Assembly: GCA_043799175.1 (NCBI GenBank)
Contig: JAZDOA010000156.1
Location: forward strand, 1,242-65,241
Direction of reading: 5' to 3'
Source: Pseudomonadota bacterium
Lineage (GTDB): Bacteria > Desulfobacterota > JAZDOA01
Length of the DNA stretch: 64,000 bases
Part shown: positions 21,310 through 60,729 of the stretch, one piece after another
Position numbering within the stretch: position 1 is the stretch's first letter
How the letters are laid out: every line of letters starts with the position of its first letter
Position numbers and translations under genes: made by a program
The notes under the pieces: model-generated
Database searches by the model: none
Told to the model about the DNA's origin: nothing
What the model saw: the letters and a program-made list of their open reading frames with translations, nothing else

Positions 21310-22493
21310 ATATGTCAGGAAAGGCTAAGAGCAGGCAGCCACATGTCTCCCCGCGGGTCGTGGCCACGGTGGGCGAGGCGCTGGAGGCCGTCCGGGCCGG
21401 TCGGCCGGTGGCGGAGGTGTCCGCGGAACTTGTGGCCCAGGGCTGGGCAAGCGAGCAGGTCATGGAGGTCGCCTCCGAACTGGGCCGACAGGCCTCCCAG
21501 GAAGCGGCCGATCTCGCCGCCGGGCTGGCCGCCGCACCCGGCTTCGCCGAAAAGGACGTCCACCGTGCCTTGAAGCGGGCCTTGTACCTGCTGGAGCAAA
21601 AGGGCTTCAAGGTCGAAGCGCCCCGAGGGGAACCGGTCCTGAAGCCGGTGGCTATTCCCGCCCTGCCCGCCTACGTGGGCCTGCCCGATGCCGCCGGGCA
21701 CCAACTGGTGGTCGCGACCATTCCCGCTCAAGGCGGCTACAACGCCTGCCTTTGCGGCCTCAGCCCACGGGGAGTGGAGCATTTTTCGCTGTTGTCGGTG
21801 CCCAAGAAGAGCCTGAGGAAGATGGTCGAGCGGATCGAGGAGGACAGTCGGCTGCCGGTGGCCGAGACCGACGAGACTCACGTGCTCTACCTGCTCGAGG
21901 AGGCCAGGGCGGCGTCAATGGCCGAGGGAGAGGCGCTGGATCCCGAGTTCGCCACGTTCCTCAGGGTTTTTTCGGGTCTGGCGGCGGGCCGTCGCGAGAC
22001 GCCGGCAATATATGACGTCATCCCGGCTGCCGAGGTGGAGGCGGATGAATCCCTTCTGGAGCGCTGCGTCGAGCTGCTCCAGGACATCGGCCTGCTCTGG
22101 AGCCTGCCCTTGTACCTGGTAAGACCTTATGCCGACGAGCTGGACCGGGCGGAGGGGTCCGGTCTCATTATCGGCCGCGAGCTGCGCGAGGCCAGGCGGC
22201 TTGAAATAATCGGCAAGGCGGCCGCCGAGTTGTTTGACGCCGGGCGGCGAAAGCGGTGGCGGCGCAGGCTGGAGGAGTGCGCCTTCGTCATGGCCAGGAA
22301 GGGCCGGCCTGATGAAGCCAGGATCGCCCTGGCCACCGCGATACACTTCGGCCATGAGATTGCGGCAAGCCGGCCGCATCCGCTAGCCGCGGCCCTGATA
22401 GGCCGCTCCCTGGACCTCTTGCGGGCCAAGGAGCGGGAGCGGATGGAATTCTCACCGATCATCACCCCAGGCGGGCCGGGAGACCGAAGGTGA
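21306..22493 (+). CDS. Hypothetical protein (395 aa, Ala/Leu/Glu-rich, probably helical)
   Basis: Translationally coupled to pyrR upstream (ATGA overlap) and to yjbQ downstream; no recognisable motifs. Confidence 0.5.
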   Translation: MNMSGKAKSRQPHVSPRVVATVGEALEAVRAGRPVAEVSAELVAQGWASEQVMEVASELGRQASQEAADLAAGLAAAPGFAEKDVHRALKRALYLLEQKGFKVEAPRGEPVLKPVAIPALPAYVGLPDAAGHQLVVATIPAQGGYNACLCGLSPRGVEHFSLLSVPKKSLRKMVERIEEDSRLPVAETDETHVLYLLEEARAASMAEGEALDPEFATFLRVFSGLAAGRRETPAIYDVIPAAEVEADESLLERCVELLQDIGLLWSLPLYLVRPYADELDRAEGSGLIIGRELREARRLEIIGKAAAELFDAGRRKRWRRRLEECAFVMARKGRPDEARIALATAIHFGHEIAASRPHPLAAALIGRSLDLLRAKERERMEFSPIITPGGPGDRR

Positions 22494-23844: not shown

Positions 23845-25053
23845 ATGGCAGTTGATGTTAAGTCAACCTCTCCTACTCCGATGCTCGACGAACTGGAGAA
23901 GGGCCCCTGGCCAAGCTTCGTATCGTGCATCAAGGAGGCGGGCAAGACAAAGGCTATGGCCCGCGATCTGCTCCTTCAGCTTGAGCAATCGTACCGAGAC
24001 GGCGTCACTCACTGGAAGCACGGCGGGATCGTCGGCGTGTTGGGCTATGGTGGAGGCGTAATCGGCCGCTACTCCGACAGCCCCGACAAGTTCCCCGGCG
24101 TGGCCCACTTCCATACCGTCCGCGTCAATCAGCCCGCGGGCAAGTTCTACACCACCAAAGCGCTGCGCCAGATATTCGACATCTGGAATCGCCGCGGCTC
24201 CGGCCTCACCAACTTCCACGGCTCCACCGGCGACATGGTCTTCTTGGGTACCACTACTGACGAACTTGAGCCCATTTTTGCCGAACTGACCAAGTTGGGC
24301 TGGGATCTCGGTGGCTCCGGTTCCTGCCTGCGTACCCCCAGCGACTGCGTGGGCATGTCCCGCTGCGAATTCGCCTGCATCGACTGTGGCGATTTCACCA
24401 ACGACGTAACCCATACCTATCAGGATGAGCTCCATCGTCCGATGTGGCCGTACAAGACCAAGATAAAGGTTGCCGGCTGCCCGAACGACTGCATCGGCGC
24501 GATCGCCCGGGCGGACTGCTCTGTCATCGGCACCTGGAGAGACGATATTCAGGTGAACCCCGACGCCGTGGCCGAGTGCTCCAAGACCATCGACATTCAG
24601 GCCGAGGTCGTGGGCCTCTGCCCGACCAGCTGCATGAGATGGGACGGCAAGAAGCTCTCCATAAACAACAAAGAGTGCAGCCGTTGCATGCACTGCATCA
24701 ACGTTATGCCCAGGGCACTGAAGCCAGGCAAAGATCGTGGCGCTACCATCTGCATCGGCGCCAAGGCCCCCATCCTCATGGGAGCCCAACTGAGCAGCGT
24801 GGTCATTCCCTTCATGCGCATGGAGTCCCCATACGAGGAGTTCAAGGACTTCATAGCCAAAGCTTGGGAATGGTGGGATGAGAATGGCAAGAACCGGGAG
24901 CGTATTGGCGAGCTGATCCTGCGCAAGGGCATGAAAGAGTTCCTGGATGCAGTCGGCCTGAAGGCGGATCCCCGCATGGTCAAGGAGCCGAGGTCCAACC
25001 CCTACGTCTTCTGGGCCGAGGACGAAGTTCCCGGCGGCTGGCCGAAGAACTAG
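23845..25053 (+). CDS. dsrA: Dissimilatory sulfite reductase alpha subunit
   Basis: DsrA N-terminus ([15 protein letters not shown]), sirohaem/[4Fe-4S]-binding Cys motifs and a ferredoxin-like insert (CPNDC...CPTSCM); 402 aa; strong SD. Confidence 0.95.
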
Positions 25054-25077
25054 AGCACTCGAGGAGGTGATTAACAC

Positions 25078-26151
25078 ATGTCATCCGCAGCAAGGATAAC
25101 CGATATAGGTCCCCCGGATTTCAAGCAGTTTCTGCCTCCGGTATGCCTGAAGAACTACGGGAAGTGGGACTATCACGAGATAGTCGAACCTGGCGTCCTG
25201 CGCCACGTGGCCGAGAGCGGCGACGAGATCCATTCCGTGCGCATTGCCTCCGCCCGTCTCCACAGCACGGCCTGGCTGGAAAGGGTCCTGCAGATCGCAG
25301 ATAAGTACTGCGACGGCTACCTGCGCTGGACGACCCGCAACAACGTCGAATTCCTGGTCTCCGACAAGAGCAGGCTCGAACCCCTGAAGGCGGAACTCAA
25401 GGAGAAGGGCTACGTCATCGGCGGTACCGGGAAGGGCATCAGCAACATCGTCCATACCCAGGGTTGGATCCACTGCCATACCCCGGCCACCGACGCCTCG
25501 GGCGTTGTCAAGGCCATAATGGACGAGCTGATAGAGTACTTCGACGGCCGCAAGACGCTGCCCGCGAAGCTGCGGGTCGCCCTGGCCTGTTGCCTTAACA
25601 TGTGCGGCGCCGTTCACTGCTCCGACATCGCCATTTTGGGCGTGCATCGCAAGCCCCCCCGGATAGACCACGGCGCGCTCAAGGTTCAGTGCGAGCTGCC
25701 GACGGTCGTTGCCTCCTGCCCCACGGGCGCCATCAAGATGAAGCCCAAGGAGGGGACGCTTGACGTCAACCAGCCGCGGTGTATGTTTTGCGGTAACTGC
25801 TACACCATGTGCCCGGCCATGCCCTTGGCCGACAAAGAGGGTGACGGTATTGCCATCCTGGTGGGCGGCAAGATCTCCAACGCTCGGAGCATGCCCAAGT
25901 TCTCCAAGATGATCATCCCCTTCATCCCCAACGAGCCGCCGCGCTGGCCGCAGACCGTTAATGTGATCAAGAAGCTCGTAGAGGTCTATGCAGCCGGTGC
26001 CAATAAGCATGAGCGTATGGGCGACTGGATCGAGCGCATAGGTTGGGAGCGTTTATTCGACCTGACGGGTATCCCGTTCGACGCGAAGTGCATCGACGAT
26101 TTCCGCCTGGCCCAGAACACTCTCCGCAATAGTACCCAGTTCAAGTGGTAG
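25078..26151 (+). CDS. dsrB: Dissimilatory sulfite reductase beta subunit
   Basis: DsrB-like sequence with Cys clusters ([29 protein letters not shown] and [12 protein letters not shown]); 357 aa; directly follows dsrA. Confidence 0.95.
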
Positions 26152-26208
26152 AGGGTTTTTTCAGGCTCCAAGCAGTATGTTTGGAACCCTTTGAGCGGAG
26201 TGAAAGAA

Positions 26209-26418
26209 ATGGCCGATCTGAAGGCAGAGATTATGGTGATTCTTGCTGAGAGTAAGCAAAAGAGAAAGAAGCTGAAGCCAAACGAGGTTGTCAAGAAGGT
26301 CCAGGAAAAGATGGAGATCTCCAAGGAAGACGTAAAGACCGCCATCAAGGAACTGGCCAACGAAGGCAAGATCGTCTACGTATATGCCGGTGGCAGCTTC
26401 GTGGAGCTTCCGTCGTAG
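26209..26418 (+). CDS. dsrD: DsrD (small winged-helix protein of the dsr operon)
   Basis: About 70 aa, Lys-rich, with C-terminal YVYAGGSFVEL resembling DsrD YWSSGSTTMYGL; ATG at 26209 with GGAG SD (the ORF track uses a TTG at 26191). Confidence 0.8.
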   Translation: MADLKAEIMVILAESKQKRKKLKPNEVVKKVQEKMEISKEDVKTAIKELANEGKIVYVYAGGSFVELPS

Positions 26419-26430
26419 TTTTTTGTAAAT

Positions 26431-27864
26431 ATGCCAAAAGAACCCTGTCCGCGTCTGGTCCTTGCGGGCCTGCGTGGTGGGTCCGGAAAAACCACGGTTT
26501 CGCTTGGTCTGACCGCCGCCTGGCGGCAGGCCGGGCGAGATGTGGTTCCCTTCAAAAAAGGACCTGACTATATCGACGCCGGGTGGCTGGCCCTGGCGGC
26601 TGGCCGGCCCTGTTATAATCTTGACCCCTTCCTGATGTCCTGGGAAGGGGTTTTGTACTCCTTTGCGCGTCGTGCCGCCCCACGGGGCATAAACATTGTC
26701 GAGGGCAACCGGGGCCTGTACGACGGGCTGGACGCCCGGGGCGAATACAGCACGGCGGAGCTTGCCAAACGGCTGCGCGCCCCCCTGGTTCTGGTGGTCG
26801 ATTGCACCAAGGCCACCCGTACCGTGGCCGCGCTGGTGCTGGGCTGCAAGTGTTTCGACGACTCCCTGAACCTCGCTGGGGTGGTGCTCAACCGCATTGC
26901 CGGCTCCCGCCATGAAGCAGTCGTCAGAGCCTCCCTGGCGGAGTATTGCGGCGTGCCCGTGGTGGGGGCGCTGCCCAAGCTGAGCGCCCGGATTGCCGAA
27001 CGCCACATGGGCCTGGTCCCCTCCCACGAGGTAGCGGAGGCCGGAGCGGCGCTGGACTTTGCCGCGGAATGCGCCCGAAAATATCTCGACCTCGATGCCC
27101 TGGAGGTTTTAGCCCAGGCCGCGCCGCCGATTGAGTGGGAGGCCGCGACCGTCGAGTGCCGCCCGGTCGCGGACCGACCCCGCATAGGCGTCATCCGCGA
27201 CGAGGCATTCTGGTTCTATTACCCGGAAAACCTGGAGGCCCTCGCCGAGGCCGGGGCGGAGGTGGTCTGGCTGGATGCCCTGCGAGACGGCGTGCTTCCT
27301 CCGCTCGACGGACTTTACATCGGCGGAGGCTTCCCCGAGGTACACGCCGAGCGCCTGGCGGCCAACAGCGGCTTTCGGGAATCCCTCCGGCTGGCAATAG
27401 AGGACTGGCTGCCGGTCTATGCCGAGTGCGGCGGGCTGATGTATCTTGGCCGGGACATCCGGGTTAAGGACACGGCCTACCCCATGGTAGGGGTGTTTTT
27501 GGTGAGTTTTGGGCTGGAGCCCAAGCCGCAGGGCCACGGCTACACCGTGCTCGAGGTCGAGGAGCAGAACCCCTTCTACCCGCCGGGGCGGGTGGTGCGG
27601 GGCCACGAGTTCCGCTACTCCAGGGTGCTGGACTACGGCGGCGGCCTAAAGCTGGCGTTCCGACTGGAAAGGGGACACGGGTTCCAGGACGGCCGCGACG
27701 GACTGATCTACAAGAATGTACTTGCCGGCTACACCCATGTTCACGCCCTGGGCACGAAGGAGTGGGCCTTCTCCCTGGTGGACCGCGCCGCCGAGCACCG
27801 AGGGCGCCGGATGGCGGAGACCGCCGCCCTGGCAGTGGGGTGCCCACGAGCAGACAAGGCCTGA
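26431..27864 (+). CDS. dsrN: DsrN, cobyrinic acid a,c-diamide synthase homologue (sirohaem amidase)
   Basis: CbiA/CobB-type N-terminal ATPase (LAGLRGGSGKTTVSLGL) plus a C-terminal glutamine amidotransferase domain; follows dsrD as in dsrABDN loci. Confidence 0.85.
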   Translation: MPKEPCPRLVLAGLRGGSGKTTVSLGLTAAWRQAGRDVVPFKKGPDYIDAGWLALAAGRPCYNLDPFLMSWEGVLYSFARRAAPRGINIVEGNRGLYDGLDARGEYSTAELAKRLRAPLVLVVDCTKATRTVAALVLGCKCFDDSLNLAGVVLNRIAGSRHEAVVRASLAEYCGVPVVGALPKLSARIAERHMGLVPSHEVAEAGAALDFAAECARKYLDLDALEVLAQAAPPIEWEAATVECRPVADRPRIGVIRDEAFWFYYPENLEALAEAGAEVVWLDALRDGVLPPLDGLYIGGGFPEVHAERLAANSGFRESLRLAIEDWLPVYAECGGLMYLGRDIRVKDTAYPMVGVFLVSFGLEPKPQGHGYTVLEVEEQNPFYPPGRVVRGHEFRYSRVLDYGGGLKLAFRLERGHGFQDGRDGLIYKNVLAGYTHVHALGTKEWAFSLVDRAAEHRGRRMAETAALAVGCPRADKA

Positions 27865-32111: not shown

Positions 32112-34322
32112 ATGGATATCAGCAGAAGAACCTTCGTGATGTTCGGGGTAGGCGCGGCCGCGGGCTTCGTCTTGGGTCCGATCAACTGGAAACTCATGGA
32201 CGACGGCGCCATCTGGACCCAGAACTGGCCCTGGGTGCCGGTGCCCGAAGACGGTGAAACCTCTTATGCCACCTCGACCTGCAAGCTGTGTCCGGGGGCG
32301 TGTGGCATAAAAGTGCGCCTGATCGACGGGAAACGCGCCATCAAGATCGACGGCGACCCCGACCATCCGGTCAACAAGGGCGGCATCTGTGCCCTGGGGC
32401 TGTCGGGCCTGCAGGTCGTCTACGGGCCGGACCGCATCAAGAGCCCTCTCAGGCGGGACGGAGAGAGGGGCTCCGGCCAATGGAAGGCCATAAGCTGGGA
32501 GGAGGCGATCTCGCAACTCTCCGCCAAACTCAGCGAACAGCGCATGAGCGCCAAGCCCCACAGCGTGGCCCTGATAAATGGAGAGAGAAACGGGGCGATG
32601 AATCGCTTCTGGGAGCGCTTCCTGCGCTCTTACGGCTCGCCGAACCACGTCCTGATGCCCTCCCTGTCCGATACTGAAGAGGCCATAGGCGAGGTGATGC
32701 ACGGGGTGCGCAGCCCCATGGGCTACGACCTCGAAGGTTCGGGATATATCCTGAGCTTCGGCGCCGAGCTTCTCGACGGCTGGGGAAGCCCCGTCCGCAT
32801 GATGCTGGCCTACGGCAACTGGCGGGGAGGCGAGGGGACGCGGCCCAGGCTGGTCCATGTCTCCAGCATGTCCTCCATGAGCAGCTCCAAGGCGGATGAA
32901 TGGGTGGCGGTGCGACCCGGAACCGAAGCGGCTCTGGCCCTGGGCATGGCCAACGTCATCCTCAACGAGGGGCTGGCCAAGGGATCGGGGGGCGGAATGG
33001 ACGCCTTCCGGCAGGTGGCCTCGGAGTACACCCCGGATAGAGTTTCCTTGGTTACCGGTGTCAAGGCGGAGGACATCGCCCGCCTGGCCAGGGAGTTCGC
33101 CGCGGCAACGCACCCGGTGGCGGTGTGGGGGCGGGGCAGGGGAGATATGCCCGAGCGTCTGGCCGATGCCGGCGCCGTGCAGTGTTTGAACGCCCTGGTA
33201 GGCGCCGTGGGCGCCACGGGTGGCGTGGCCCCGCAACCTGCCGTACCGCTGGCGGGCTGGGGCGAGGCCCCGGTGGACATGGTGGCCGCGGCTGGCCTTG
33301 GTGCGGGAAGGCTGGACGGCACGGGGGGTGGGTGGCCACCAGCGCCTGGCGCCAGGGGAGCTGTGGGCAGCCTGGCTCACGACTTCCTCCAGGCCGCCGA
33401 CCAGAACGCGCCCTACGGGGTCAATGTCCTCATGGTCTACGAGGCCAACCCGGCCTACTCGTTGGCCGAGGCGCGCCTGTTCCGAGAGGCGGCGGGTAAG
33501 ATTCCTTACATTGTCAGTTTTGCCAGCTCTATGGATGAAACGGCGGCCATGGCGGATCTCATCCTGCCTAACCATACCTATCTGGAGCGCTGGGACAGCA
33601 CCCTGACCCCGCCGGGCCTTCAGTACCCGCTGGTCAGCCTGACCAAGCCGGTCATCGATCCCCTCTACCAGACCAGGCACACCGCCGAGGTCATGATGGA
33701 AGTCGCCAAGGCCGTGGGTGGCTCCGCCGCTTCAGCCCTGCCCTGGAGCAGCGCCGAGGAGATGGTCAAGTCCGAGGTTGCCTCGCTCGTCGGGGAAGGC
33801 TTGGTGTGGTGTGATCCGGCCGCCAGAGGGGGCGATAGCTTCGGCTTCGCCATGACCCTGCCCGGACGTGAAGAGAGCCGGGTGCCCAACTATCAGTCGG
33901 CCAACTTGACCGGCTCGGCACCCGAGTACCCCCTCCTGCTTATGCCCTTCGCCAACGCGCGGATGACGCAGAACAACATCGCCAATCCGCCCTACATGAC
34001 CAAAACCCTCGAGGATACCGTCTTGTTCGGGCAGGACCTGTTCGTCAGGTTGAGCCCGGTAACGGCGGGTGACCTGGAGATCGAGGAAGGCGACGCGGTG
34101 GAGCTGAAGACACCGGGTGGCACGGTAAAGGTCAGGGTGACTCTCGATCTCGGTATCCCGCCGGGAGTGGTGGGAATACCCCAGGGGCTTGGTCATGTCG
34201 CCCAGAGCGAATGGATAGCGGGCAAGGGTATCAACGCGAATGATGTCCTTATGATCGAGCGTGACCCTCTCAGCGGGTTGGCCAGGTGGCATGCAACCAG
34301 GGCCCGCGTCACCAAGATATAG
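32112..34322 (+). CDS. qrcB: Molybdopterin-oxidoreductase-family large subunit, QrcB-like (Tat-exported)
   Basis: Twin-arginine signal (SRRTFVMFGVGAAAG), N-terminal Cys cluster region (CKLCPGACGIKV) and MopB fold; 736 aa. Confidence 0.8.
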   Translation: MDISRRTFVMFGVGAAAGFVLGPINWKLMDDGAIWTQNWPWVPVPEDGETSYATSTCKLCPGACGIKVRLIDGKRAIKIDGDPDHPVNKGGICALGLSGLQVVYGPDRIKSPLRRDGERGSGQWKAISWEEAISQLSAKLSEQRMSAKPHSVALINGERNGAMNRFWERFLRSYGSPNHVLMPSLSDTEEAIGEVMHGVRSPMGYDLEGSGYILSFGAELLDGWGSPVRMMLAYGNWRGGEGTRPRLVHVSSMSSMSSSKADEWVAVRPGTEAALALGMANVILNEGLAKGSGGGMDAFRQVASEYTPDRVSLVTGVKAEDIARLAREFAAATHPVAVWGRGRGDMPERLADAGAVQCLNALVGAVGATGGVAPQPAVPLAGWGEAPVDMVAAAGLGAGRLDGTGGGWPPAPGARGAVGSLAHDFLQAADQNAPYGVNVLMVYEANPAYSLAEARLFREAAGKIPYIVSFASSMDETAAMADLILPNHTYLERWDSTLTPPGLQYPLVSLTKPVIDPLYQTRHTAEVMMEVAKAVGGSAASALPWSSAEEMVKSEVASLVGEGLVWCDPAARGGDSFGFAMTLPGREESRVPNYQSANLTGSAPEYPLLLMPFANARMTQNNIANPPYMTKTLEDTVLFGQDLFVRLSPVTAGDLEIEEGDAVELKTPGGTVKVRVTLDLGIPPGVVGIPQGLGHVAQSEWIAGKGINANDVLMIERDPLSGLARWHATRARVTKI

Positions 34323-34331
34323 AGGTAAGAG

Positions 34332-35108
34332 ATGAAGGAAACTCATTTCAAGAACCGTTACGGCATGGTCATCGACCTGGACAAGTGCACGGGATGCGGG
34401 GCTTGCACGGTGGCCTGCTGCACGGAGAACAACCTGCCGGCGTTGCCCGATGAGAGTGACAAGGTTCGCAGCATCACCTGGCTTCGCCTCTACCGGGTAG
34501 ACAACGGCCAGCCGTGGCCCAAGACACAGTACAGCTACTTCCCCCGGCCTTGCATGCACTGTGACCATCACACCCCGTGCGTCTCGGTCTGCCCGGTTAC
34601 GGCAACGAAAAAAGACGAAAACGGCGGGATCGTCAGCCAGATATATACCCGCTGCATGGGTTGCCGGTACTGCATGGCCTCCTGCCCTTACCATGCCCGA
34701 TACTTCAATTGGTGGGACGTGCGGTGGCCCGGAGATACCCAAAAAGCCCTGACCCCCGATGTCTCCCCCCGCATGAGGGGCGTCGTGGAAAAGTGTTCCT
34801 TCTGCCACCATCGCATGATGAAGGCAAAGGACAAGGCCGCGCTCGAAGGTCGCCACGAACTCAATGAAGGTGAATGGCAGCCCGCCTGCGTGGAGGCGTG
34901 CCCCGCCAAGGCCATGACCTTCGGGGACTTGAACAATCCCGAAGCGGCGGTTACCAAACTGTCCAAGAGCCCTCACGCCTTCCGGCTCCTGGAGCGTCTC
35001 GGAACCGAGCCCAAGGTATACTACCTCTCCACCAGAGCGTGGGTGCGGTGGTGGGCGGACAATCACTACCCGGGTGAAAAGAAGGTAGTGCCCGCCGTCC
35101 ACCTGTAA
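34332..35108 (+). CDS. qrcC: 4Fe-4S ferredoxin-type iron-sulfur subunit, QrcC-like
   Basis: Several CxxCxxCxxxC clusters (CTGCGACTVAC, CMHCDHHTPCVSVCP and CMGCRYCMASCP); 258 aa. Confidence 0.8.
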   Translation: MKETHFKNRYGMVIDLDKCTGCGACTVACCTENNLPALPDESDKVRSITWLRLYRVDNGQPWPKTQYSYFPRPCMHCDHHTPCVSVCPVTATKKDENGGIVSQIYTRCMGCRYCMASCPYHARYFNWWDVRWPGDTQKALTPDVSPRMRGVVEKCSFCHHRMMKAKDKAALEGRHELNEGEWQPACVEACPAKAMTFGDLNNPEAAVTKLSKSPHAFRLLERLGTEPKVYYLSTRAWVRWWADNHYPGEKKVVPAVHL

Positions 35109-35120
35109 AGGAGTGCGAAT

Positions 35121-36341
35121 ATGGATCGTTCACTGATTCCGGATGGCTGCAGGAGATGCTCGCCGGCGGTGTTTTTCATCTTCCAGGCGCTCTGGATGGG
35201 GCTGGTGGGCTTTGGTATCCTCGGCGCGACGCTCTGCCTCGGCCTTGGGCTGAACCAGACCGGGCTTAACGACTATTTCGGCTTCGGCATCTGGATCGTC
35301 TTCGACCTTGCGATCATCGCCCTGGGCGCGGGCGCCTTCTCTACCGGCTTCCTGGCTTATGTGGTCGGCAAGAAAGAGCTCAAGCCCATGATCAACGCCG
35401 CGGTCATCATCGGCTTCATCTGCTACTCCGGCGCGGTGGGCATGCTGGGCATAGACGTCGGGCAACCCATCAGGGGCTGGTTCGGCTTCTGGCACGCCAA
35501 TGTGCACAGCATGCTGACGGAAGTTATGTTTTGCATCACGACTTACCTGGCCGTGCTGGTCATAGAATATCTGCCGAATATCCTGGAAAACCGGAAGCTC
35601 GACAAGATTCCGGCGGTTCACGCCTTCAGCCACAACCTTCATGAGATAATGGTCGTCTTCGCCGCCACCGGGGCATTCCTCTCCATGTTCCATCAAGGGT
35701 CTCTGGGCGGTCTCTACGGGGTAATGTACGCCAGGCCGTTCGCCGCCCGAACAGGCATCCTGATCTGGCCCTGGACGTTCTTCCTCTTCATCATCTCGGC
35801 GGTGGCTTCCGGCCCGGCCTTCACCATGTTCTGCATCTGGTTGACCCAGAAGATCAGCGGGCGCCAGCTGGTGAAGCGCGAGGTGCTCAGTCTGCTGGCC
35901 AAGATCGCGGGCAACGTGCTGCTGGTCTACGCCGTGCTGAAACTGATAGACACCTACTACTGGGCCACCGTGGTGGCGCCCAGCGCGGGCTTCACCCTAT
36001 TGCAGTTTTATAAGGCGCCCTACGGGATTCACCTGCTCGTCATCGAGCTGGCGTGCGCCGTGCTGCCGGTGTTCGTCCTGCTGAACCCGAAACTGCGGGA
36101 TAAGGACGCCTGGCTGATTCCGGCGGCGCTGATAGACATCGCCGGGATCTGCCTGAACCGCTTCGTGTTCACGGTTCAGACCTCGGCCGTACCCGTCCTG
36201 CCATTTGACAAATACATCCCGTATCACGCCACATGGCAGGAGTGGTCCATCGCCATTGCCATGATCGGCTACGGGCTCCTGATATACTCGTTCTCATACC
36301 GCTATCTGCCGGTCTTCCCGCAGGAAAGGGAGTTGAACTAG
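35121..36341 (+). CDS. qrcD: NrfD/PsrC-family integral membrane subunit, QrcD-like
   Basis: 406-aa polytopic membrane protein in the conserved position after the FeS subunit. Confidence 0.8.
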   Translation: MDRSLIPDGCRRCSPAVFFIFQALWMGLVGFGILGATLCLGLGLNQTGLNDYFGFGIWIVFDLAIIALGAGAFSTGFLAYVVGKKELKPMINAAVIIGFICYSGAVGMLGIDVGQPIRGWFGFWHANVHSMLTEVMFCITTYLAVLVIEYLPNILENRKLDKIPAVHAFSHNLHEIMVVFAATGAFLSMFHQGSLGGLYGVMYARPFAARTGILIWPWTFFLFIISAVASGPAFTMFCIWLTQKISGRQLVKREVLSLLAKIAGNVLLVYAVLKLIDTYYWATVVAPSAGFTLLQFYKAPYGIHLLVIELACAVLPVFVLLNPKLRDKDAWLIPAALIDIAGICLNRFVFTVQTSAVPVLPFDKYIPYHATWQEWSIAIAMIGYGLLIYSFSYRYLPVFPQERELN

Positions 36342-42172: not shown

Positions 42173-42624
42173 CAGCCGTTGTCCTCCTCGATCAAGGGGG
42201 GTTCGAGCTTGACCGTCTCCGGCCCTTCGGCCAGCCTGGGTCCCTTGCAGGCCATTATATACGCTGGCTCATCGCCCGTGTTCTTGTAGGCGTGCCCGAC
42301 CCCGGCCGCCAGGCGCAGGAGGCGCCCCTCCCCACCGACGCTCTCTCGCCGCACCCGGCCGTCTTCTTCCCAGACGACGAGCGCCCGGCCGCCGAAAAAG
42401 AAGAGGTATTCCTCTCTGGTGGGATGCGCATGATTGCCGCGGACCTGCCCCGGCACGCTGGCCACGATGTGCAGGCTGGTCATGTCTATCGGGACGTCTT
42501 CCGGCAGTAAGGCGGCCCAACCGCCCCTGGCGTCCTTCCTGACCACTCCGGACAGAAACTCGCTCCGCTCCCGCGCCATGCTTCCTCCCCCGCATTTGTA
42601 CGATGAGGCTGATATTCTCGGCAA
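42172..42624 (-). CDS. Cupin-domain protein
   Basis: Cupin motifs G(X)5HxH...(HAHPTREEYLFFFGG) and a second His motif (GHAYKNTGDEP); the real start may be the internal MARERSEF. Confidence 0.65.
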   Translation of the reverse strand: MPRISASSYKCGGGSMARERSEFLSGVVRKDARGGWAALLPEDVPIDMTSLHIVASVPGQVRGNHAHPTREEYLFFFGGRALVVWEEDGRVRRESVGGEGRLLRLAAGVGHAYKNTGDEPAYIMACKGPRLAEGPETVKLEPPLIEEDNG

Positions 42625-42782
42625 AGCTGGTGTATTGTCAAGCTCGGTTTAATTATCAGCCGAAATCGGCTGGTGACTCAGCCGCCTACTTGGGTGGGCA
42701 TGTTTTTCTGAGTTGTCAAAGTGGTACACAAAGTGCGATACGCGAACAAAGCCACGATGGAGCCAAACGAGCGGAGGTCCTG

Positions 42783-44066
42783 ATGGCCAGCATTGAAGGT
42801 ATCAGAATACGGAACTTCCGCGCCCTGCGCGACGTAACACTGGGTAAGTTATGGCAGCTGCAAAAGGCCGCTCCCCTGACTCCCATGACCGCCGTTATCG
42901 GGAAAAATGGCGTCGGCAAAAGCACGATTTTCGATGCCTTCAGTTTCCTGGCGGATTGCCTGAAAACCGGCGTGGAAGAGGCTTGTGACCTGCGCGGGCG
43001 CGGAGGGTTTGATCGCATCAGGTCGCAAGGGGAAGCGGGGGGCATCGAGTTTGAAGTTTATTACAGGGAATATTTGAAGGCGCGGCCTATCACCTATGAG
43101 CTTGCCGTTGACCTGGATTCTAAGGGGCGCCCCTACGTTCAGAAGGAAAGACTCCGCCAGAGACGAGAAGGGCAATTCCACGGCAGGCCTTTCTCTTTCC
43201 TTTGGCTTGAGAATGGTAAGGGCATTGCCTGGAAAGGGGAGAGAGGAGGGGTTGACGAAAAAGAACAGCAGATGGATCTCTCGGGGATCATCAAGCGTAT
43301 CGAAAAAGGAGAGGACGAAGAGGAGAGCAGGGAAACCGAAATTGTCGAACTCGATGACAAACGCAAGCTTGGCATCGCCACGCTTGGTGCACTCAAACAG
43401 CATCCTCGAATTTCAAAGTTCCGCCGCTTCATTGAAGGTTGGTATCTGAGCTACTTCAGGCCTGACTCCGCCCGTGGTCTCCCGCTTGCGGGTCCCCAAA
43501 AACATTTGAATATCCATGGGGATAATCTCGGTAATGTGGTTCAGTTCATGGAACGCGAGCATCCGAAGCGGTTTAAATCAATCTTGGAGGCAATAGCGGC
43601 AAAAATTCCAGGTATCGACAAGATAGACACCGTAAAAACTCCGGATGGAAGGCTGTTGCTTCGGTTCAACGACAAGGGGTTCAAGGATCCCTTCTATGCA
43701 CAACAGATGTCTGATGGCACTTTGAAAGTGTTCGCTTACCTCCTGCTCCTCAATGATCCTACTCCACCACCATTCTTGTGCGTGGAGGAACCCGAAAATG
43801 GATTGTACCACAAACTTCTTGAGACCCTTGCAAAGGAGTTCCGCGAACACGCCGCTCAAAGAGGCGGGTCACAGGTATTCGTTACCACGCACCAGCCCTA
43901 TTTCGTGGACGCGCTGAATCCTGACGAAGTATGGGTGATGGAAAAGGGAACCGACGGGTTCGCGACCATCAAACGAGCGAGCGAAGATCCACTTGTGAAC
44001 AATTTGGTAAGCGAAGGTATCCCCCTTGGCGGACTCTGGTACAGCGATTATTTGGATGCAAGGTGA
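42783..44066 (+). CDS. ABC/SMC-type AAA ATPase (AAA_15/AAA_21-like; RecF/OLD-ATPase-like), candidate defence ATPase
   Basis: ATG at 42783 with GGAGG 7 nt upstream. Walker A GKNGVGKST, signature-like QMSDGTLK, Walker B/D-loop FLCVEEPENGLH and H-loop VFVTTHQP. GC about 48-50% against about 63% in the flanks. Confidence 0.8.
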   Translation: MASIEGIRIRNFRALRDVTLGKLWQLQKAAPLTPMTAVIGKNGVGKSTIFDAFSFLADCLKTGVEEACDLRGRGGFDRIRSQGEAGGIEFEVYYREYLKARPITYELAVDLDSKGRPYVQKERLRQRREGQFHGRPFSFLWLENGKGIAWKGERGGVDEKEQQMDLSGIIKRIEKGEDEEESRETEIVELDDKRKLGIATLGALKQHPRISKFRRFIEGWYLSYFRPDSARGLPLAGPQKHLNIHGDNLGNVVQFMEREHPKRFKSILEAIAAKIPGIDKIDTVKTPDGRLLLRFNDKGFKDPFYAQQMSDGTLKVFAYLLLLNDPTPPPFLCVEEPENGLYHKLLETLAKEFREHAAQRGGSQVFVTTHQPYFVDALNPDEVWVMEKGTDGFATIKRASEDPLVNNLVSEGIPLGGLWYSDYLDAR

Positions 44067-44071
44067 AGCCG

Positions 44072-44731
44072 ATGCACTTTGAAATACTTGTCGAAGATCA
44101 GTCTGGGAAACGAATGCTTGACGTACTTGTTCCCAAATTCATCGGCACTGAGCACACATGCGTGGTTCACGCCTACAAGGGTATCGGGCATATTCCCAAA
44201 GACCTCAGAGGGAAGGCTGACCCGAGCAAGCGCATTCTTCTTGATCGGCTTCCCAAACTGCTCCGAGGGCACGGAAAGACGTTTGCCGGCTATGGCAAAG
44301 ACTACCATGCCGCCGTCGTGGTGGTGTGCGACCTGGATGATAAGTGCCTGAAAGTATCTCGTCAGGAGCTATTGGGCGTCCTCAATGCCTGCAACCCCAA
44401 GCCCAACACCCGCTTTTGCTTCGCGGTTGAGGAAGGTGAAGCCTGGTTCTTGGGTGACCTGAACGCTGTCAGAAGGGCTTATCCCCGGGCCAGGGACAGC
44501 GTACTTCATTCCTACCGGAATGACGAAGTCTGTGGGACATGGGAGAAACTGGCCGATGCCGTATATCCCGGCGGAGCCGCAAAGCTATCCGGTAAGGGCC
44601 GGCAAGCAGTAGGCAAAGAGAAGTCCCGGTGGGCCGAGGCCATCACACCCCATATGGACGTCTCAAACAGTAGCTCGCCGAGCTTTTGCTACTTTCGTGA
44701 CAAGCTGCGGGAACTGGCGCGGCGCGGTTGA
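44072..44731 (+). CDS. Small TOPRIM-like protein (resembles DUF4276 / OLD-nuclease C-terminal module), partner of the upstream ATPase
   Basis: ATG at 44072, 5 nt after the ATPase stop. N-terminal EILVEDQSG (TOPRIM Glu) and VVVVCDLDD (DxD) motifs plus a conserved AVEEGEAWFLGD block; 219 aa; low GC like the ATPase. Confidence 0.7.
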   Translation: MHFEILVEDQSGKRMLDVLVPKFIGTEHTCVVHAYKGIGHIPKDLRGKADPSKRILLDRLPKLLRGHGKTFAGYGKDYHAAVVVVCDLDDKCLKVSRQELLGVLNACNPKPNTRFCFAVEEGEAWFLGDLNAVRRAYPRARDSVLHSYRNDEVCGTWEKLADAVYPGGAAKLSGKGRQAVGKEKSRWAEAITPHMDVSNSSSPSFCYFRDKLRELARRG

Positions 44732-44767
44732 TGGACCACATGCCGGCAATCCGCCCCAGGTTCCCTT

Positions 44768-45598
44768 ATGCCCGAGCTCCCCGAAGTTGAGACCATAGCC
44801 CGCGACCTGCGCGCCCAGAACCTGCCCGGAAGCAGGGTGGAAGAGGCGATAATCCTCCATCCCAAAATCATTCGGGGCGGGGCGACCCCGTTCGCGCGGG
44901 GACTTAGGGGGACGACGGTTGCCTCGGTCGGCCGCCACGGCAAGCTACTCCTCATTGATCTCAATTGCGAACCCGACGGCGGCCTAGTCCTCACCGTACA
45001 CCTGGGGATGACCGGCCAGCTCACCCTGGTGCCGGAAGGCACGCCCCTGGCCAGCCACACCCACGCCGTATTCGGCCTGAACGACGGCCGGCAGCTCCGC
45101 TTCCGCGACATTCGCCGTTTTGGCCGGCTGGCCCTGCTCGGCGGCCGGGAGGCCCAGGAGGTACTCAAAAGAGACCTCGGGCCGGACGCCCTGGAAATAG
45201 GCGAGGAAGATTTGGCCTCCCTGCTTCGGTCCCGCCGGGTTGGCATAAAGACCCTGTTGCTGAACCAGCGACTGCTGGCGGGCGTGGGCAACATCTACGC
45301 CAACGAGATACTCTTCGCGGCCAGAATAAACCCCTGGCGCGCGGCGGGCGGGCTGAGCGGCGAGGAGGTCCACCGGCTCCACCATGCCCTAAAAACAGTA
45401 CTCTCGGCGGCCATCGAGGGTCGGGGGTCTACCATTTCTGACTACGCCGACGTCTCGGGGCGCGCCGGGAACTTTCAGACCCGCCACCAGGTGTACCGCA
45501 AGGAGCGTTGCCCCTCGTGCGGCGGGCCGATCCTGCGGGTGGCAGGCGGAGGGCGCCCTACATTTTATTGCCCCGCCTGCCAGCCGGCTATTTTTTGA
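44768..45598 (+). CDS. mutM: Formamidopyrimidine-DNA glycosylase
   Basis: N-terminal MPELPEVE catalytic motif, H2TH domain and C-terminal zinc finger CPSCGGPI...CPACQ; 276 aa. Confidence 0.95.
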   Translation: MPELPEVETIARDLRAQNLPGSRVEEAIILHPKIIRGGATPFARGLRGTTVASVGRHGKLLLIDLNCEPDGGLVLTVHLGMTGQLTLVPEGTPLASHTHAVFGLNDGRQLRFRDIRRFGRLALLGGREAQEVLKRDLGPDALEIGEEDLASLLRSRRVGIKTLLLNQRLLAGVGNIYANEILFAARINPWRAAGGLSGEEVHRLHHALKTVLSAAIEGRGSTISDYADVSGRAGNFQTRHQVYRKERCPSCGGPILRVAGGGRPTFYCPACQPAIF

Positions 45599-58997: not shown

Positions 58998-59438
58998 TCA
59001 ATCGAGGTGAGCCAGGACCTCGCGCGGGTCGAAGGGCTTTCGCAGGACGAAGTCAATATTGCCGCCCAAGGCGGAAGCGGCCGGTTTAGCGACGTCCCAG
59101 CCGGTCATGATGCCCACCGAGGTCGAGGGGCTGGAGGCCTTTATCCGCTCGGCGACCTCCCAACCGTTCATTCCCGGCATGCCCAGGTCGGTCAGGACCA
59201 GGTCGAAATCCTCCTTCGCGGCCTTGTCGATCCCCTCCTGGGCCGTGGCCGCGATGGTGACCTGACGGTTGGCGGTGGAGAGGAGTTCGCTAAGGCTCTC
59301 GAGCAGCGAAATCTCGTCGTCGATAATGAGCAGCTTCTTGGTATGCCGGCTGTCTTCGGCGGCCTTCCGGCGGCGTGGCGGCCTGCGGTGGCCGACCTTC
59401 GCCACGACCAGGCAGGGGGCCGTCTTCCTGGTCTCCAC
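58998..59438 (-). CDS. Response-regulator receiver domain protein; 5' end ambiguous and may be the C-terminal domain of the upstream sensor
   Basis: KLLIIDDE...D LGMPGMNGWE...T...K receiver motifs; no canonical start near the domain; the GTG at 59438 lies inside the upstream ORF. Confidence 0.6.
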   Translation of the reverse strand: METRKTAPCLVVAKVGHRRPPRRRKAAEDSRHTKKLLIIDDEISLLESLSELLSTANRQVTIAATAQEGIDKAAKEDFDLVLTDLGMPGMNGWEVAERIKASSPSTSVGIMTGWDVAKPAASALGGNIDFVLRKPFDPREVLAHLD

Positions 59439-60468
59439 CTGCCGGGCGCAGGCTGACCGTCAGCTTCACGACACGGCCCGACACCGCGCGGATGGCAATC
59501 TTGTGCTCACGCCAGTGGCGCTGGCGCAGGTCCCGGAGTATCTCGGCCACCACCAGCCGCCGGGTCTCCTTGGGCAGCAGGGCGGAAAAACGGTGGCCCA
59601 CGAGATCCCTGGCCGGCCGGCCCCAGATGGCGGCGGCGGCCGCGTTCAGCTTCAGCAGTCTGCCCGTCTGGCCGAATATGAGGATTGGACTGGTGTTACA
59701 GTCAACCAGCTCCTCGACAACGGCCGAGATCCGCCGTATCTCCTGTTGCTGAACGAGCGCGCGGCGCATGAAGCGCTCCACCTCCAGCCCCAGGCCTTGG
59801 TTGAGTGCATCCAGCCGGCGTTTCAGCTCTACGCTCTTGAGCATCTGGGCCGCGGTGGCGGACAGCAGCACCAGGGCGTGCTCTATGTGCCGGGAGGGCA
59901 ACTCCGCGAGCGGGCTGCCAAGCTTGATGATCCCCAACCGTTCCTCGTCGGCTCGCATGGGCGCCAGGGCCACGAAGCCGCGCTGGTCCTCGTCCGGTTT
60001 GGGGTAGGTGAGCGTGGGGTACTGAGACCGGAAGGCATCCGCCAGTGGTCCGTTGCTGGCCGAGTATACCGCCGGGTGCCGGCCGCAGGTGGAACCGGCC
60101 TCCCGAAGCTCGTCCCGCCGTCTGTCGTAGAGGTAGATGTGACAGCACTCGAACTCCAGCTCCGCGGCCAGGACCACCGACGCCGAGGAGCAGACTTCTT
60201 CAGGGGTATTCGCCTCGGACAAGACGTCACTGAGGCGGCGGATCGCCGAGAGCACCCGGAGCAACTCCTCGTAGCGCTGCTGGACGAGCGAAATCTCGCG
60301 AGGATAGACTTCATGCCAGCCGCTCGCCTCCTCGAGCATGTCAAGGAGCCCGTTCAGGCGACGGATCATCTCCGGGGTACCGGCGGCCGGATCGAGGCGG
60401 GCCGTGTGATCTCCCCGCTCGATTTGATCGAGCAGCGTGCTGAAGGCGTCTGTACAGTCCCTTGCCAC
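59290..60468 (-). CDS. GAF/PAS-domain signalling protein; the C-terminal ~50 aa are low-complexity read-through overlapping the REC gene
   Basis: GAF-like middle region followed by a PAS-like segment (PILIFGQTGRLLKLNAAAAAIWG); the tail (Pro/Arg/Gly-rich) overlaps REC ORF 58998-59438 by 149 nt. Confidence 0.55.
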   Translation of the reverse strand: MARDCTDAFSTLLDQIERGDHTARLDPAAGTPEMIRRLNGLLDMLEEASGWHEVYPREISLVQQRYEELLRVLSAIRRLSDVLSEANTPEEVCSSASVVLAAELEFECCHIYLYDRRRDELREAGSTCGRHPAVYSASNGPLADAFRSQYPTLTYPKPDEDQRGFVALAPMRADEERLGIIKLGSPLAELPSRHIEHALVLLSATAAQMLKSVELKRRLDALNQGLGLEVERFMRRALVQQQEIRRISAVVEELVDCNTSPILIFGQTGRLLKLNAAAAAIWGRPARDLVGHRFSALLPKETRRLVVAEILRDLRQRHWREHKIAIRAVSGRVVKLTVSLRPAGGDQEDGPLPGRGEGRPPQAATPPEGRRRQPAYQEAAHYRRRDFAAREP

Positions 60469-60729
60469 GGTGATACCTCGCGGAGCGTCCGGGTCAGCTT
60501 CCGTCTCTCGCAGCCGGCACCCTCTCGGCCTTCAAACAGCCACAAAGAGACCACGGGTGCCGGAGCTTGCCTGGCGCGGCTCGCGCCCGTCCCCCTTGTT
60601 ATCGGGCTACCCCGCCAAGTACTTGAGATAGGGACAAATGCTCATACCGCGCCCAGCTTGCGCGCCTCCGTGGCGTCCGAGGTCATTTTGCCGTTGAGTT
60701 AATGTGGAATCGGTCGTTAATATGCTTGC

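Follow-up and report, generated by a model that had tools for sequence, protein, structure and literature searches.

The window, by which we mean the whole 64-kb stretch of DNA analysed here, contains two adjacent genes on the + strand whose products are the same as the NCBI gene calls of the source contig (100% identity and coverage). These are the two open reading frames, 5 nt apart, singled out by the original prediction, and their positions were confirmed. The locus comprises the following elements:

42580-42782, + strand: upstream spacer between the probable start of the cupin gene (first ATG) and gene 1, 52% GC
42773-42777, + strand: GGAGG ribosome-binding site of gene 1, ending 5 nt before the ATG
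42783-44066, + strand: gene 1, 427 a.a., HEC-01A, predicted OLD/SMC-like ABC ATPase
44060-44074, + strand: coupling junction, with AAGGTGA, AGCCG and the gene 2 ATG in sequence
44072-44731, + strand: gene 2, 219 a.a., HEC-01B, DUF4276-family protein, predicted OLD-type TOPRIM nuclease with a helical C-terminal region
44732-44767, + strand: spacer of 36 nt between gene 2 and mutM
44768-45598, + strand: mutM, the downstream neighbour of the pair

At the junction, the Shine-Dalgarno-like AAGGTGA overlaps the TGA stop codon of gene 1 and is separated from the gene 2 ATG by the 5-nt gap AGCCG. The same arrangement of a stop codon, 3-5 nt and an ATG is found in the copies from Methanosarcina, Desulfomicrobium orale and Magnetococcales, and gene 2 is translationally coupled to gene 1. 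The upstream spacer, which presumably includes the promoter of the pair, contains a terminator-like hairpin (42682-42699) and a TTGTCAA motif (42713-42719). In the 36-nt spacer before mutM, we found no terminator-like site on the + strand, and mutM may therefore be co-transcribed with the pair at present. As had been predicted, the genes for an M29 aminopeptidase and a cupin lie upstream on the - strand and mutM lies downstream on the + strand; the neighbours overall are aminopeptidase, cupin, mutM, GGDEF, prfB and lnt. No methylase, helicase or PglZ gene was found in the ~5 kb surveyed on each side, no integrase or transposase gene adjoins the pair, and the 64-kb window contains neither tRNA genes nor Rfam matches. 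A dsrAB-like gene pair, located ~17 kb upstream, would fit a host with dissimilatory sulfur metabolism.

Gene 1 matched the PADLOC model HEC-01A (PDLC04182) over almost its entire length (E 2.5e-195, 647 bits; residues 1-426, model positions 1-402 of 406). The original description of an ABC/SMC-type ATPase was borne out by Pfam AAA_21 (E 6.2e-45), and AAA_15, SMC_N and AAA_23 matched as well. The ATPase motifs are all intact and in the correct order, with invariance scored in an alignment (A2) that includes the distant P. agarici protein:

42900-42926, + strand: Walker A/P-loop GKNGVGKST, residues 40-48; G40, N42, G43, G45 and K46 invariant
43233-43322, + strand: segment of highest variability in the ATPase by column entropy, residues 151-180, acidic, KGERGG...EKGEDEE
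43707-43727, + strand: signature-like ABC motif MSDGTLK, residues 309-315; S310, G312, T313 and K315 invariant
43773-43808, + strand: Walker B and D-loop FLCVEEPENGLY, residues 331-342; C333, E335, E336, P337, E338 and N339 invariant
43884-43898, + strand: H-loop TTHQP, residues 368-372; T369 and H370 invariant

Judged from these motifs and profile matches, gene 1 encodes an ABC ATPase of the OLD/SMC-like kind. The motifs quoted in the original prediction are present in both proteins, except that the D-loop, given there as ending in GLH, reads GLYH. The column entropy of residues 151-180 is 1.1-1.5 bits, compared with a mean of 0.47, and this segment is, speculatively, a candidate specificity or sensor insert. 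The AlphaFold2 model of gene 1, built from a shallow alignment of sequences ~80% identical, reached a pLDDT of only 53 and a pTM of 0.38, and was therefore kept out of the fold searches. With the A2 profile, the best match among PDB sequences was 6p74, an OLD-family entry with a partial match at E 3.6e-7, and the search returned no PDB entry nearer to the ATPase.

Gene 2 matched the PADLOC model HEC-01B (PDLC04205) with an E-value of 9.5e-93 (308 bits; residues 1-214, model positions 1-211 of 213). It contains the motifs EILVEDQSG (residues 4-12) and VVVVCDLDD (residues 82-90), and the residues conserved among 59 diverse relatives, which are 33-60% identical to the window protein, are encoded as follows:

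44093-44095, + strand: E8 codon, the TOPRIM glutamate right behind strand b1; invariant in the 59 family members
44330-44338, + strand: D87-L88-D89 codons, the TOPRIM DxD closing strand b3; D87 and D89 invariant
44438-44446, + strand: E123-A124-W125 codons, behind strand b4; E123 and W125 invariant
44621-44623, + strand: K184 codon, in the C-terminal helical region; invariant lysine

The predicted structure of gene 2 (pLDDT 95.9) has the canonical TOPRIM topology b1-a1-b2-a2-b3-a3-b4, with the strands at residues 2-7, 29-34, 80-87 and 113-118. E8 and D87/D89 are located at strand ends, so that the model displays the hallmark of the OLD-type TOPRIM fold, a glutamate behind b1 and a DxD behind b3. 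By analogy with the OLD nucleases (Payne et al. 2024), E123 may provide a second metal ligand. K184 is a putative catalytic lysine. Foldseek with this model yielded no significant match in the PDB or among viral structures, and a sequence-profile search of the PDB with the DUF4276 alignment likewise gave nothing meaningful. On its own, gene 2 scores below the 30.2-bit gathering threshold of Pfam DUF4276 (PF14103; 16.5 bits, E 0.01), in a match that runs from end to end (residues 7-212, model positions 1-191 of 192), and 58 of the 59 aligned relatives match the same model at E<=0.001. DUF4276 has been placed independently in the Toprim superfamily (PMC12065111). Gene 2 is thus a DUF4276-family TOPRIM protein with the full presumed catalytic constellation E8, D87-x-D89, E123 and K184, as the original suggestion of a DUF4276-like TOPRIM protein had anticipated.

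The family of the pair, which had been considered unassignable and perhaps an undescribed variant, was identified by the profile search. HEC-01 (Hma-embedded candidate 01; PADLOC-DB v2) consists of an ABC ATPase and a DUF4276/TOPRIM protein, of which HEC-01B has the metal site of the B. pseudomallei OLD protein in common (Payne et al. 2024, bioRxiv 10.1101/2024.01.29.577857). In the window, the two genes are adjacent on one strand, in the same order of a co-oriented ATPase gene and a DUF4276/TOPRIM gene, and the TOPRIM metal-site residues are kept. The pair is therefore a member of HEC-01, a catalogued candidate anti-phage family, and the finding is real but, since HEC-01 is already listed in PADLOC, not new. 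The previously studied P. agarici pair falls under another sub-model than PDLC04182/PDLC04205, its ATPase and nuclease share only 40% and 25% identity, respectively, with the window proteins, and its genes overlap by 4 nt instead of being separated by 5 nt. Furthermore, HEC-01 was discovered embedded in Hma (helicase-methylase-ATPase) systems (bioRxiv 10.1101/2024.01.29.577857), whereas the window pair is free-standing, with no helicase or methylase among its neighbours.

Several known systems share parts of this architecture. Mad3-Mad4 of the P. aeruginosa MADS system (bioRxiv 10.1101/2023.03.30.534895) likewise combine an AAA_15/21-type ABC ATPase with an adjoining DUF4276 TOPRIM protein, and gene 1 is also matched by the mad3 model of PADLOC (E 1.9e-24). 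We rejected MADS membership, as gene 1 scores 104 bits against the NCBIfam MAD3 model (NF047739), which has a cut-off of 420. None of the 12 PADLOC models matching gene 2 at E<=1 is named mad4, all 12 being HEC-01, and mad1, mad2 and mad5-8, of which mad6-8 are mandatory MADS genes, were not found near the pair. MADS also tells self from non-self via methylation, whereas no methylase lies near the window locus.

The original prediction had in addition pointed to the domain logic of OLD, PARIS and AbiL, which holds for the layout but not for PARIS or AbiL membership. PARIS (AriA-AriB) has the same order of two genes for an ABC ATPase and a separate TOPRIM nuclease. It was rejected because gene 2 has no DUF4435 match (Pfam, E<=1) and no AriB model among its PADLOC matches; AriB is also longer (~300 a.a., compared with 219 a.a.). 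The A2-profile search of PDB sequences reached AriA only at E 0.04, and the PADLOC 'AriA' match on gene 1 (PDLC02980) coincides with the stretch matched by the generic Pfam AAA_21 model. AbiL of Lactococcus (AbiLi-AbiLii) similarly pairs an ATPase with an RloB-like partner of the Toprim superfamily, and the PADLOC AbiLi model partially matches gene 1 (E 1.5e-26). This candidate was dismissed in the absence of any RloB or AbiLii match of gene 2 in Pfam or PADLOC; just one of the 59 family members touches RloB (E 7e-4). The OLD nucleases, compared through P2 Old and T. scotoductus OLD (class 1) and B. pseudomallei OLD and Gabija GajA (class 2), have the E/DxD/E/K catalytic logic in common with gene 2. 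However, they carry the ATPase and the TOPRIM domain on one polypeptide, whereas a stop codon separates two reading frames in the window. Both OLD classes and Gabija were excluded on this ground, together with the lack of a match to PF20469 (Pfam OLD-like TOPRIM) and of an adjacent UvrD/GajB helicase gene.

The base composition of the pair is atypical for the host genome. Gene 1, gene 2 and the pair as a whole have GC contents of 52.3%, 56.1% and 53.7%, respectively, compared with a window mean of 62.2%, and the pair is the 1.95-kb stretch of minimum GC in the 64 kb (z = -3.3; the next lowest stretch elsewhere is at 56.3%). The GC contrast had thus been seen correctly but was overstated, with 48-50% proposed for the pair and ~54% found; values of 49-51% occur only in local 400-nt windows. 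The GC3 is 58-63%, compared with 79-82% in the flanking genes, and the noted enrichment in AAA and GAA codons was reproduced, with 15 of 30 lysines in gene 1 encoded by AAA, compared with 1 of 18 in prfB. The best non-self match of the host MutM is 60% identical, whereas the ATPase has counterparts with 81% identity in unrelated phyla.

We identified three empty sites, using MutM homologues, contig look-ups and one metagenome scan. In these three related contigs, the order aminopeptidase-cupin, then mutM-GGDEF-prfB-lnt, is kept and the pair is absent; the aminopeptidases are 75-77% identical and the cupin-mutM distance is 232-401 bp. The synteny comparison therefore identifies the pair as an insertion, in agreement with the original prediction: it was inserted by horizontal transfer into the divergent cupin/mutM intergenic region of this lineage. 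An aminopeptidase search of species-representative genomes was uninformative, as its best matches were only 53-60% identical and neither mutM, nor the cupin gene, nor the pair adjoined the aminopeptidase among the 37 best-matching loci listed. No convincing terminal repeats, att-like repeats or conserved flanks were found around the pair. The window spacers and the empty-site spacers L090 and L091 have only the short TTGTCAA motif in common, which is too weak to define the exact insertion point.

A further possibility is a cellular function other than defence, either DNA repair or a part in the cell cycle, with the pair and mutM co-transcribed as a repair operon, comparable to RecF/RecR or to the archaeal Cran1, which shows that an OLD-family ATPase can act in the cell cycle (PMC12796447). 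The short, apparently terminator-free spacer of just 36 nt before mutM and the very high amino acid conservation over bacteria and archaea are in line with such a role. However, the closest relatives show this mutM neighbourhood but lack the pair, and the neighbours in the other genomes examined are unrelated to repair, so that a mutM repair operon can be rejected. The patchy distribution, the foreign GC content and the carriage by a plasmid and a prophage, described below, also fit accessory rather than core genes, making a repair or cell-cycle role highly improbable. The siting beside mutM, which had been regarded as remarkable, has no apparent functional meaning, since the neighbours are unrelated in every other genome examined.

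The subfamily of the window pair is found, at 73-81% identity, in Nostoc, Methanosarcina, Desulfomicrobium, a conjugative plasmid and a lambdoid prophage, and the ATPase homologues across phyla are 78-81% identical. In most of the genomes sampled, including the host, the pair stands alone among housekeeping genes and outside defence islands. The plasmid pGLE121P3 carries it as cargo, and in the lambdoid prophage of Rahnella it lies between the antiterminator and lysis genes. The Methanosarcina copy is flanked by Thoeris genes on one side and, on the other, by SNF2/PglZ genes that are part of a BREX-like locus. This copy, and probably that of Amarolinea, lies in a BREX-like locus with N6/N4 methylases. 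OLD-ABC and TOPRIM pairs have been described as backup effectors inside BREX systems (PMC12839542).

These placements, together with the first discovery of HEC-01 within Hma systems, raise the question of whether the pair is an orphaned accessory effector of a methylation system of the Hma, MADS or BREX type, which would need a methyltransferase and a helicase elsewhere in the genome and otherwise be inert here. In MADS, mad3 and mad4 are required for defence, and deletion of the methylase gene mad5 is possible only if mad2 or mad3 is removed as well (bioRxiv 10.1101/2023.03.30.534895); the related mad3 and mad4 are accessory in that system, with mad3 needed for the lethality of methylase loss. 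Nevertheless, the ~5 kb on each side of the window pair is free of methylase, helicase and PglZ genes (the inspected portion of the genome being 64 kb), and the MAD3 score of gene 1 is far below the cut-off. Most subfamily copies are solitary, and the solitary copies are still under strong purifying selection, which argues for a stand-alone function. We thus consider an orphaned effector very unlikely.

A solitary pair could also be a selfish, toxin-antitoxin-like addiction module, in which the ATPase would restrain a TOPRIM toxin, with little or no anti-phage benefit, and which would persist and spread mainly because its loss is harmful. Solitary copies lacking defence neighbours in most genomes sampled, carriage by the conjugative plasmid and the prophage, tight translational coupling, and the Pfam label of AAA_21, 'putative AbiEii toxin, Type IV TA system', are all consistent with addiction. 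So is the fact that one assayed HEC-01, that of P. agarici, gave no protection against phages in E. coli (Payne et al. 2024, bioRxiv 10.1101/2024.01.29.577857). Another HEC-01, a cold-seep representative, did protect E. coli B from one or more of the phages T4, T5 and T7, with no effect size given (PMC12881386), and PARIS, a two-gene system built on the same logic, is a true defence whose nuclease alone is only mildly toxic (PMC11464382). Moreover, residence in BREX-like and Hma loci is typical for immune effectors, and addiction is compatible with abortive defence, the two not being mutually exclusive. Taken together, an addiction module appears rather improbable.

The identity of the pair proteins (73-80% at the amino acid level) is unusually high for defence genes, and the third codon positions are near saturation. 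A tentative reading, which we regard as possible but doubtful, is that the PDLC04182/PDLC04205 clade of HEC-01 is a distinct autonomous defence cassette. Such a cassette would be exchanged between bacteria and archaea and would land in intergenic spots with no recombinase and no recognisable ends. Its ATPase would respond not to phage proteins that evolve fast but to a universal cue, for example free DNA ends, a replication intermediate or some conserved host factor, and its nuclease target might be universally conserved as well, for example a tRNA. High protein identity (73-81%) with saturated synonymous sites would be expected if the cue were universal, and such a nuclease target would be in keeping with it too. 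If this reading is true, the mechanism would be unlike the PARIS-type sensing of anti-restriction proteins.

The interpretation that we prefer, and consider probable, is that the pair was acquired horizontally as a free-standing representative of HEC-01, a candidate defence family within the OLD-like superfamily of ABC ATPase and TOPRIM nuclease systems. The ATPase would act as a sensor or regulator that controls the nuclease. PARIS serves as the working model for sensing by the ATPase and release of the nuclease (PMC11464382), and P2 Old is a mechanistic analogue of the pair (PMC12445682). The ATPase would form a dimer or a larger assembly that keeps the nuclease inactive and, by means of ATP binding or hydrolysis, would detect infection through a phage protein or through DNA of aberrant structure. 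It would then license or release the two-metal TOPRIM nuclease to cut nucleic acid. The target may be DNA of the invader, which is the case for Gabija, class 1 OLD and retron-Eco8, or, equally possibly, a tRNA of the host, the target of PARIS AriB and P2 Old. The outcome would be a block of phage or mobile element replication, possibly with loss of the infected cell. In favour of a defence role are the conflict-type settings of the Methanosarcina, plasmid and prophage copies, the protection seen with the cold-seep representative and the requirement for mad3 and mad4 in MADS. The negative P. agarici assay, the solitary position of most copies, the unusual protein conservation, the missing Foldseek match of gene 2 and its sub-threshold DUF4276 score count against this interpretation.

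For genome annotation, the pair is an ordinary accessory defence candidate, with no link to mutM or energy metabolism. HEC-01 is comparatively frequent in environmental genomes, ranking in the top 12 candidate defence types of cold-seep MAGs (PMC12881386), and the locus provides a clean natural example of the family, a free-standing copy accompanied by three empty sites in an uncultured, presumably sulfur-metabolising lineage. It also draws attention to one HEC-01 clade that is far more conserved across the domains of life than immune genes usually are, and offers a well-defined subfamily to clone, distinct from the pair of P. agarici, for which the phage assay was negative.

The six-frame ORF list of the window contained two co-oriented ORFs flanked by a cupin gene on the minus strand and mutM on the plus strand:

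42783-44066, plus strand: gene 1, 427 aa, with GGAGG 5 nt before its ATG
44072-44731, plus strand: gene 2, 219 aa

On the source contig, which is a MAG contig of 78.8 kb, NCBI called the genes with the same boundaries, in agreement with the original prediction of a two-gene pair at this location with this gene 1 start and a 5-nt gap. The products are identical over 100% of their length (100% identity) to the database proteins P0121, annotated as 'AAA family ATPase', and P0001, annotated as 'hypothetical protein', respectively. The two genes are translationally coupled: the Shine-Dalgarno-like AAGGTGA holds the gene 1 stop and is followed by AGCCG and the gene 2 ATG. The spacer 5' of gene 1 has a terminator-like hairpin at 42682-42699 on the plus strand (CCGCCTACTTGGGTGG, then a T-run), where no plus-strand gene ends; it could be a cassette-borne remnant or a regulatory element.

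The base composition of the pair differs from that of its surroundings, although less sharply than first claimed. The GC content is 53.7% (gene 1, 52.3%; gene 2, 56.1%) versus 62.2% for the window, and values of 49-51% are reached only by local 400-nt windows. Even so, the pair is the lowest-GC 1.95-kb stretch of the 64 kb (z = -3.3; next lowest elsewhere, 56.3%), its GC3 is 58-63% versus 79-82% in the flanking genes, and the AAA and GAA codons are clearly over-represented, as proposed.

Elsewhere in the window, sulfur and energy metabolism genes occupy 23845-27864, 10349-11656, 1193-9517 and 32112-36341. They include a dsrA/dsrB-like NIR_SIR pair followed by a CobB/CobQ-type (DsrN-like) amidotransferase, a DsrK-like CCG/4Fe-4S protein, nuo-type complex I genes and a molybdopterin oxidoreductase with an NrfD-type membrane subunit, a set that would be consistent with dissimilatory sulfur metabolism, either reduction or oxidation. 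Three long ORFs (395-510 aa) had no Pfam match at E<=1e-5: 16101-17633 (minus), 21306-22493 (plus) and 59269-60702 (plus). Since the first overlaps the opposite-strand ORF 16122-17558, some of the three may not be genes.

Gene 1 encodes an intact ABC ATPase, as anticipated from its ABC/SMC-type features. Pfam AAA_21 matched along the whole protein (E 6.2e-45), and AAA_15, SMC_N and AAA_23 matched its N-terminus. The motifs follow the canonical order of Walker A, ABC signature-like, Walker B/D-loop and H-loop, and their positions are invariant even with a 40%-identical homologue in the alignment. All of the motifs quoted in the original prediction are present, except that the D-loop reads GLYH, not GLH. 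The structure model of gene 1 (pLDDT 53) was set aside as fold evidence, and the ABC fold is assigned from the sequence profiles and the analysis by Payne et al. Within the ATPase, only residues 151-180 form a variable stretch, which might, speculatively, be a specificity insert.

The gene 2 product, a predicted nuclease, is a separate TOPRIM protein of the OLD type in which the catalytic constellation is complete. Its match to Pfam DUF4276 covers the full length at 16.5 bits, below the cut-off of 30.2, and 58 of 59 aligned relatives (33-60% identical to gene 2) match this family, which has been independently assigned to the Toprim superfamily (PMC12065111). The AlphaFold2 model from the 59-sequence alignment (mean pLDDT 95.9, pTM 0.91) shows a b1-a1-b2-a2-b3-a3-b4 core with a helical C-terminal region after it; E8 comes immediately after b1 and D87-x-D89 at the end of b3. 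E8, D87, D89, E123, W125 and K184 are the sole invariant columns among the 59 sequences. The topology, the invariant E8/D87/D89 and the DUF4276 relatives bear out the proposed TOPRIM, DUF4276-like identity.

At the level of sequence profiles, the PADLOC library settles the family as HEC-01, contrary to the earlier view that it could not be assigned or was perhaps undescribed. Gene 1 matched the HEC-01A model PDLC04182 (E 2.5e-195, 647 bits) and gene 2 the HEC-01B model PDLC04205 (E 9.5e-93, 308 bits), both at full length, and the two genes are adjacent, so that all three sequence and arrangement features tested were found. HEC-01, one of the 'Hma-embedded candidates', pairs an ABC ATPase with a TOPRIM protein, the metal-binding site of which corresponds to the one in B. 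pseudomallei OLD (Payne et al. 2024). The idea of a candidate antiphage ATPase-TOPRIM pair held. The pair is neither PARIS nor AbiL: gene 2 lacks DUF4435/AriB identity, and no RloB/AbiLii partner is present. MADS was rejected (MAD3, 104 bits versus 420 for gene 1; other mad genes absent nearby), as were classical OLD and Gabija, the pair being no fused polypeptide and having no helicase partner.

The pair is a horizontally acquired insertion. The host lineage is sparsely sampled: in a set of 5.8 billion proteins, the best match to its MutM, other than itself, is 60% identical. As the original prediction had envisaged for a synteny comparison, three related contigs (L089, L090 and L091) keep the neighbourhood of M29 aminopeptidase (75-77% identical to the window), cupin (55-57%) and then divergent mutM (55-69%), and encode nothing resembling the pair. 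Beyond mutM, the next genes in L090 are GGDEF and prfB; in L091 they are GGDEF (65%), prfB (79%), lnt (66%), CorC and arginase. The cupin-mutM distance is 401 bp in L090, 232 bp in L091 and about 330 bp in L089; the spacers flanking the pair total ~239 bp (203 + 36), so the addition amounts to essentially the two ORFs and some 5' leader. In cyanobacteria, Chloroflexota, Aminicenantes, Magnetococcales, Desulfomicrobium and Methanosarcina, related proteins are 78-81% identical to the ATPase and 65-73% to the TOPRIM protein. Beside the pair, no terminal repeats (direct or inverted), tRNA genes, Rfam elements or recombinase genes were found, nor was flanking DNA conserved between cassette copies.

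The spacer from gene 2 to mutM is 36 nt long and terminator-less, which might suggest a joint repair or cell-cycle role with mutM, for which Cran1 offers a precedent; such a role is disfavoured by the empty sites in relatives and by the unrelated neighbours at other loci. TTGTCAA occurs in the window at 42713-42719 (~65 bp upstream of gene 1) and 42634-42640, and in the empty sites L090 (about 7910) and L091 (about 7925-7945), about 70-80 bp upstream of mutM. From this shared position, and with a weak spacer alignment, the cassette may lie between the ancestral mutM promoter and mutM, perhaps borrowing that promoter.

We inspected eleven other loci of the subfamily, and 10 of them have the same unit of an ATPase gene followed by a DUF4276 gene. 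In the remaining locus (Amarolinea), which is fragmentary and frameshifted, no DUF4276 gene is called after the ATPase gene. The Methanosarcina, D. orale and Magnetococcales copies share the junction of stop, 3-5 nt and ATG; in the Nostoc copy and locus L008, gene 2 as called starts before gene 1 ends.

Genomic contexts of the pair in other genomes
Nostoc sp. TCL26-01 (CP040297.1), locus L001 7771-14519: solitary, housekeeping neighbours; opposite in orientation to the Bmp / ABC_tran / BPD_transp_2 x2 transporter operon that it splits
Desulfomicrobium orale: solitary, housekeeping neighbours
Magnetococcales MAG: solitary, housekeeping neighbours
Two metagenomic chromosomes: solitary, housekeeping neighbours
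Aminicenantes MAG: solitary, housekeeping neighbours
Methanosarcina sp. WWM596 (CP009503.1), locus L003 1-17602: within a BREX-like locus, composite defence island
Conjugative plasmid pGLE121P3: between T4SS genes and MobF relaxase, 75% identical
Rahnella aquatilis HX2 plasmid PRA1, locus L093 5551-10837: lambdoid prophage, antiterminator-lysis slot, 73% identical

The Nostoc copy is another precise intergenic insertion, with no ORF disrupted and no mobility gene nearby. In Methanosarcina, two small systems are nested in an archaeal BREX-like locus: the island holds BrxC/PglY, an SLFN/Fic-like protein, two N6/N4 methylases, Thoeris ThsA(Macro)/ThsB(TIR), the HEC-01 pair, an SNF2 helicase and PglZ. 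The Ca. Amarolinea copy probably lies in a similar island. The antiterminator-lysis gap of a lambdoid prophage is a classic moron slot, and the Rahnella prophage itself resides on a 571-kb plasmid; this prophage and pGLE121P3 provide vehicles for transfer. The BREX-like, plasmid and prophage contexts fit a role in mobile-element conflicts. As a less likely rival reading, an addiction module would fit the carriage on mobile elements and the solitary contexts, and is compatible with abortive defence. A ~45-nt conserved leader, CTCATGTGGTATGATCAGGC(A/G)GTGAC, precedes the ATPase start in Methanosarcina (L003 9950-10000) and D. orale (L006 8655-8703) and includes an extended -10-like TGnTATGAT. 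The leader is degenerate in L007 and L092; GTGGTACACA, at about 42720 in the window, bears only a faint likeness to it.

The transfers are not recent, since the nucleotide identity between cassette copies is 64-70% and cassette GC3 follows the host, from 23% in Nostoc up to 63% in the window. Between the window ATPase (42783-44066) and those of L001, L003, L006, L007, L092, L093 and L095, from bacteria and one archaeon, amino-acid identity is 73-80%, whereas, where the residue is identical, the third codon position agrees in just 33-44% of cases. This comparison of coding sequences points to old transfers and to purifying selection of a strength unusual in a presumed immune gene. Such selection across many solitary copies is hard to square with an orphaned accessory of an Hma/MADS/BREX system, which the discovery context of HEC-01 would otherwise fit.

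For a defence role, characterised relatives suggest that the ATPase would act as a sensor or regulator and the TOPRIM protein as the effector nuclease. The AriA hexamer of PARIS keeps hold of AriB until ATP-dependent recognition of a phage protein frees it; AriB then dimerises and cuts tRNA-Lys (PMC11464382). Cleavage of tRNA anticodon stems by P2 Old requires ATP hydrolysis (PMC12445682). A V. cholerae class 1 OLD nuclease reportedly nicks DNA, the Retron-Eco8 holocomplex reportedly cuts dsDNA, and GajA is an OLD-family nuclease. In MADS, the DUF4276-containing mad3-mad4 pair is needed for defence, and the methylase gene can be deleted only with mad2 or mad3 also removed, indicating a DNA-directed, restriction-like activity there. 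Because no methylase gene was found in the surveyed neighbourhood, we favour a trigger-activated nuclease for the free-standing pair, with DNA and tRNA about equally likely substrates. Direct functional evidence for HEC-01 defence is scant, with mixed outcomes. The pair of P. agarici, which shares only 40% (ATPase) and 25% (TOPRIM protein) identity with that of the window, failed to protect E. coli (Payne et al. 2024), and a single cold-seep HEC-01, picked at random, defended E. coli B against one or more of T4, T5 and T7 (PMC12881386).

OLD-type ABC ATPases with TOPRIM partners in conflict systems have been described since Krishnan et al. 2020, and the same architecture was lately described again as a BREX backup effector. 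Given this record and the HEC-01 matches, the locus is not a new system, but a further example of HEC-01, itself a known but uncharacterised candidate. It is mildly interesting as a cleanly documented insertion in front of mutM, and as a member of a clade whose conservation across domains of life is exceptional and recommends the clade for mechanistic work.
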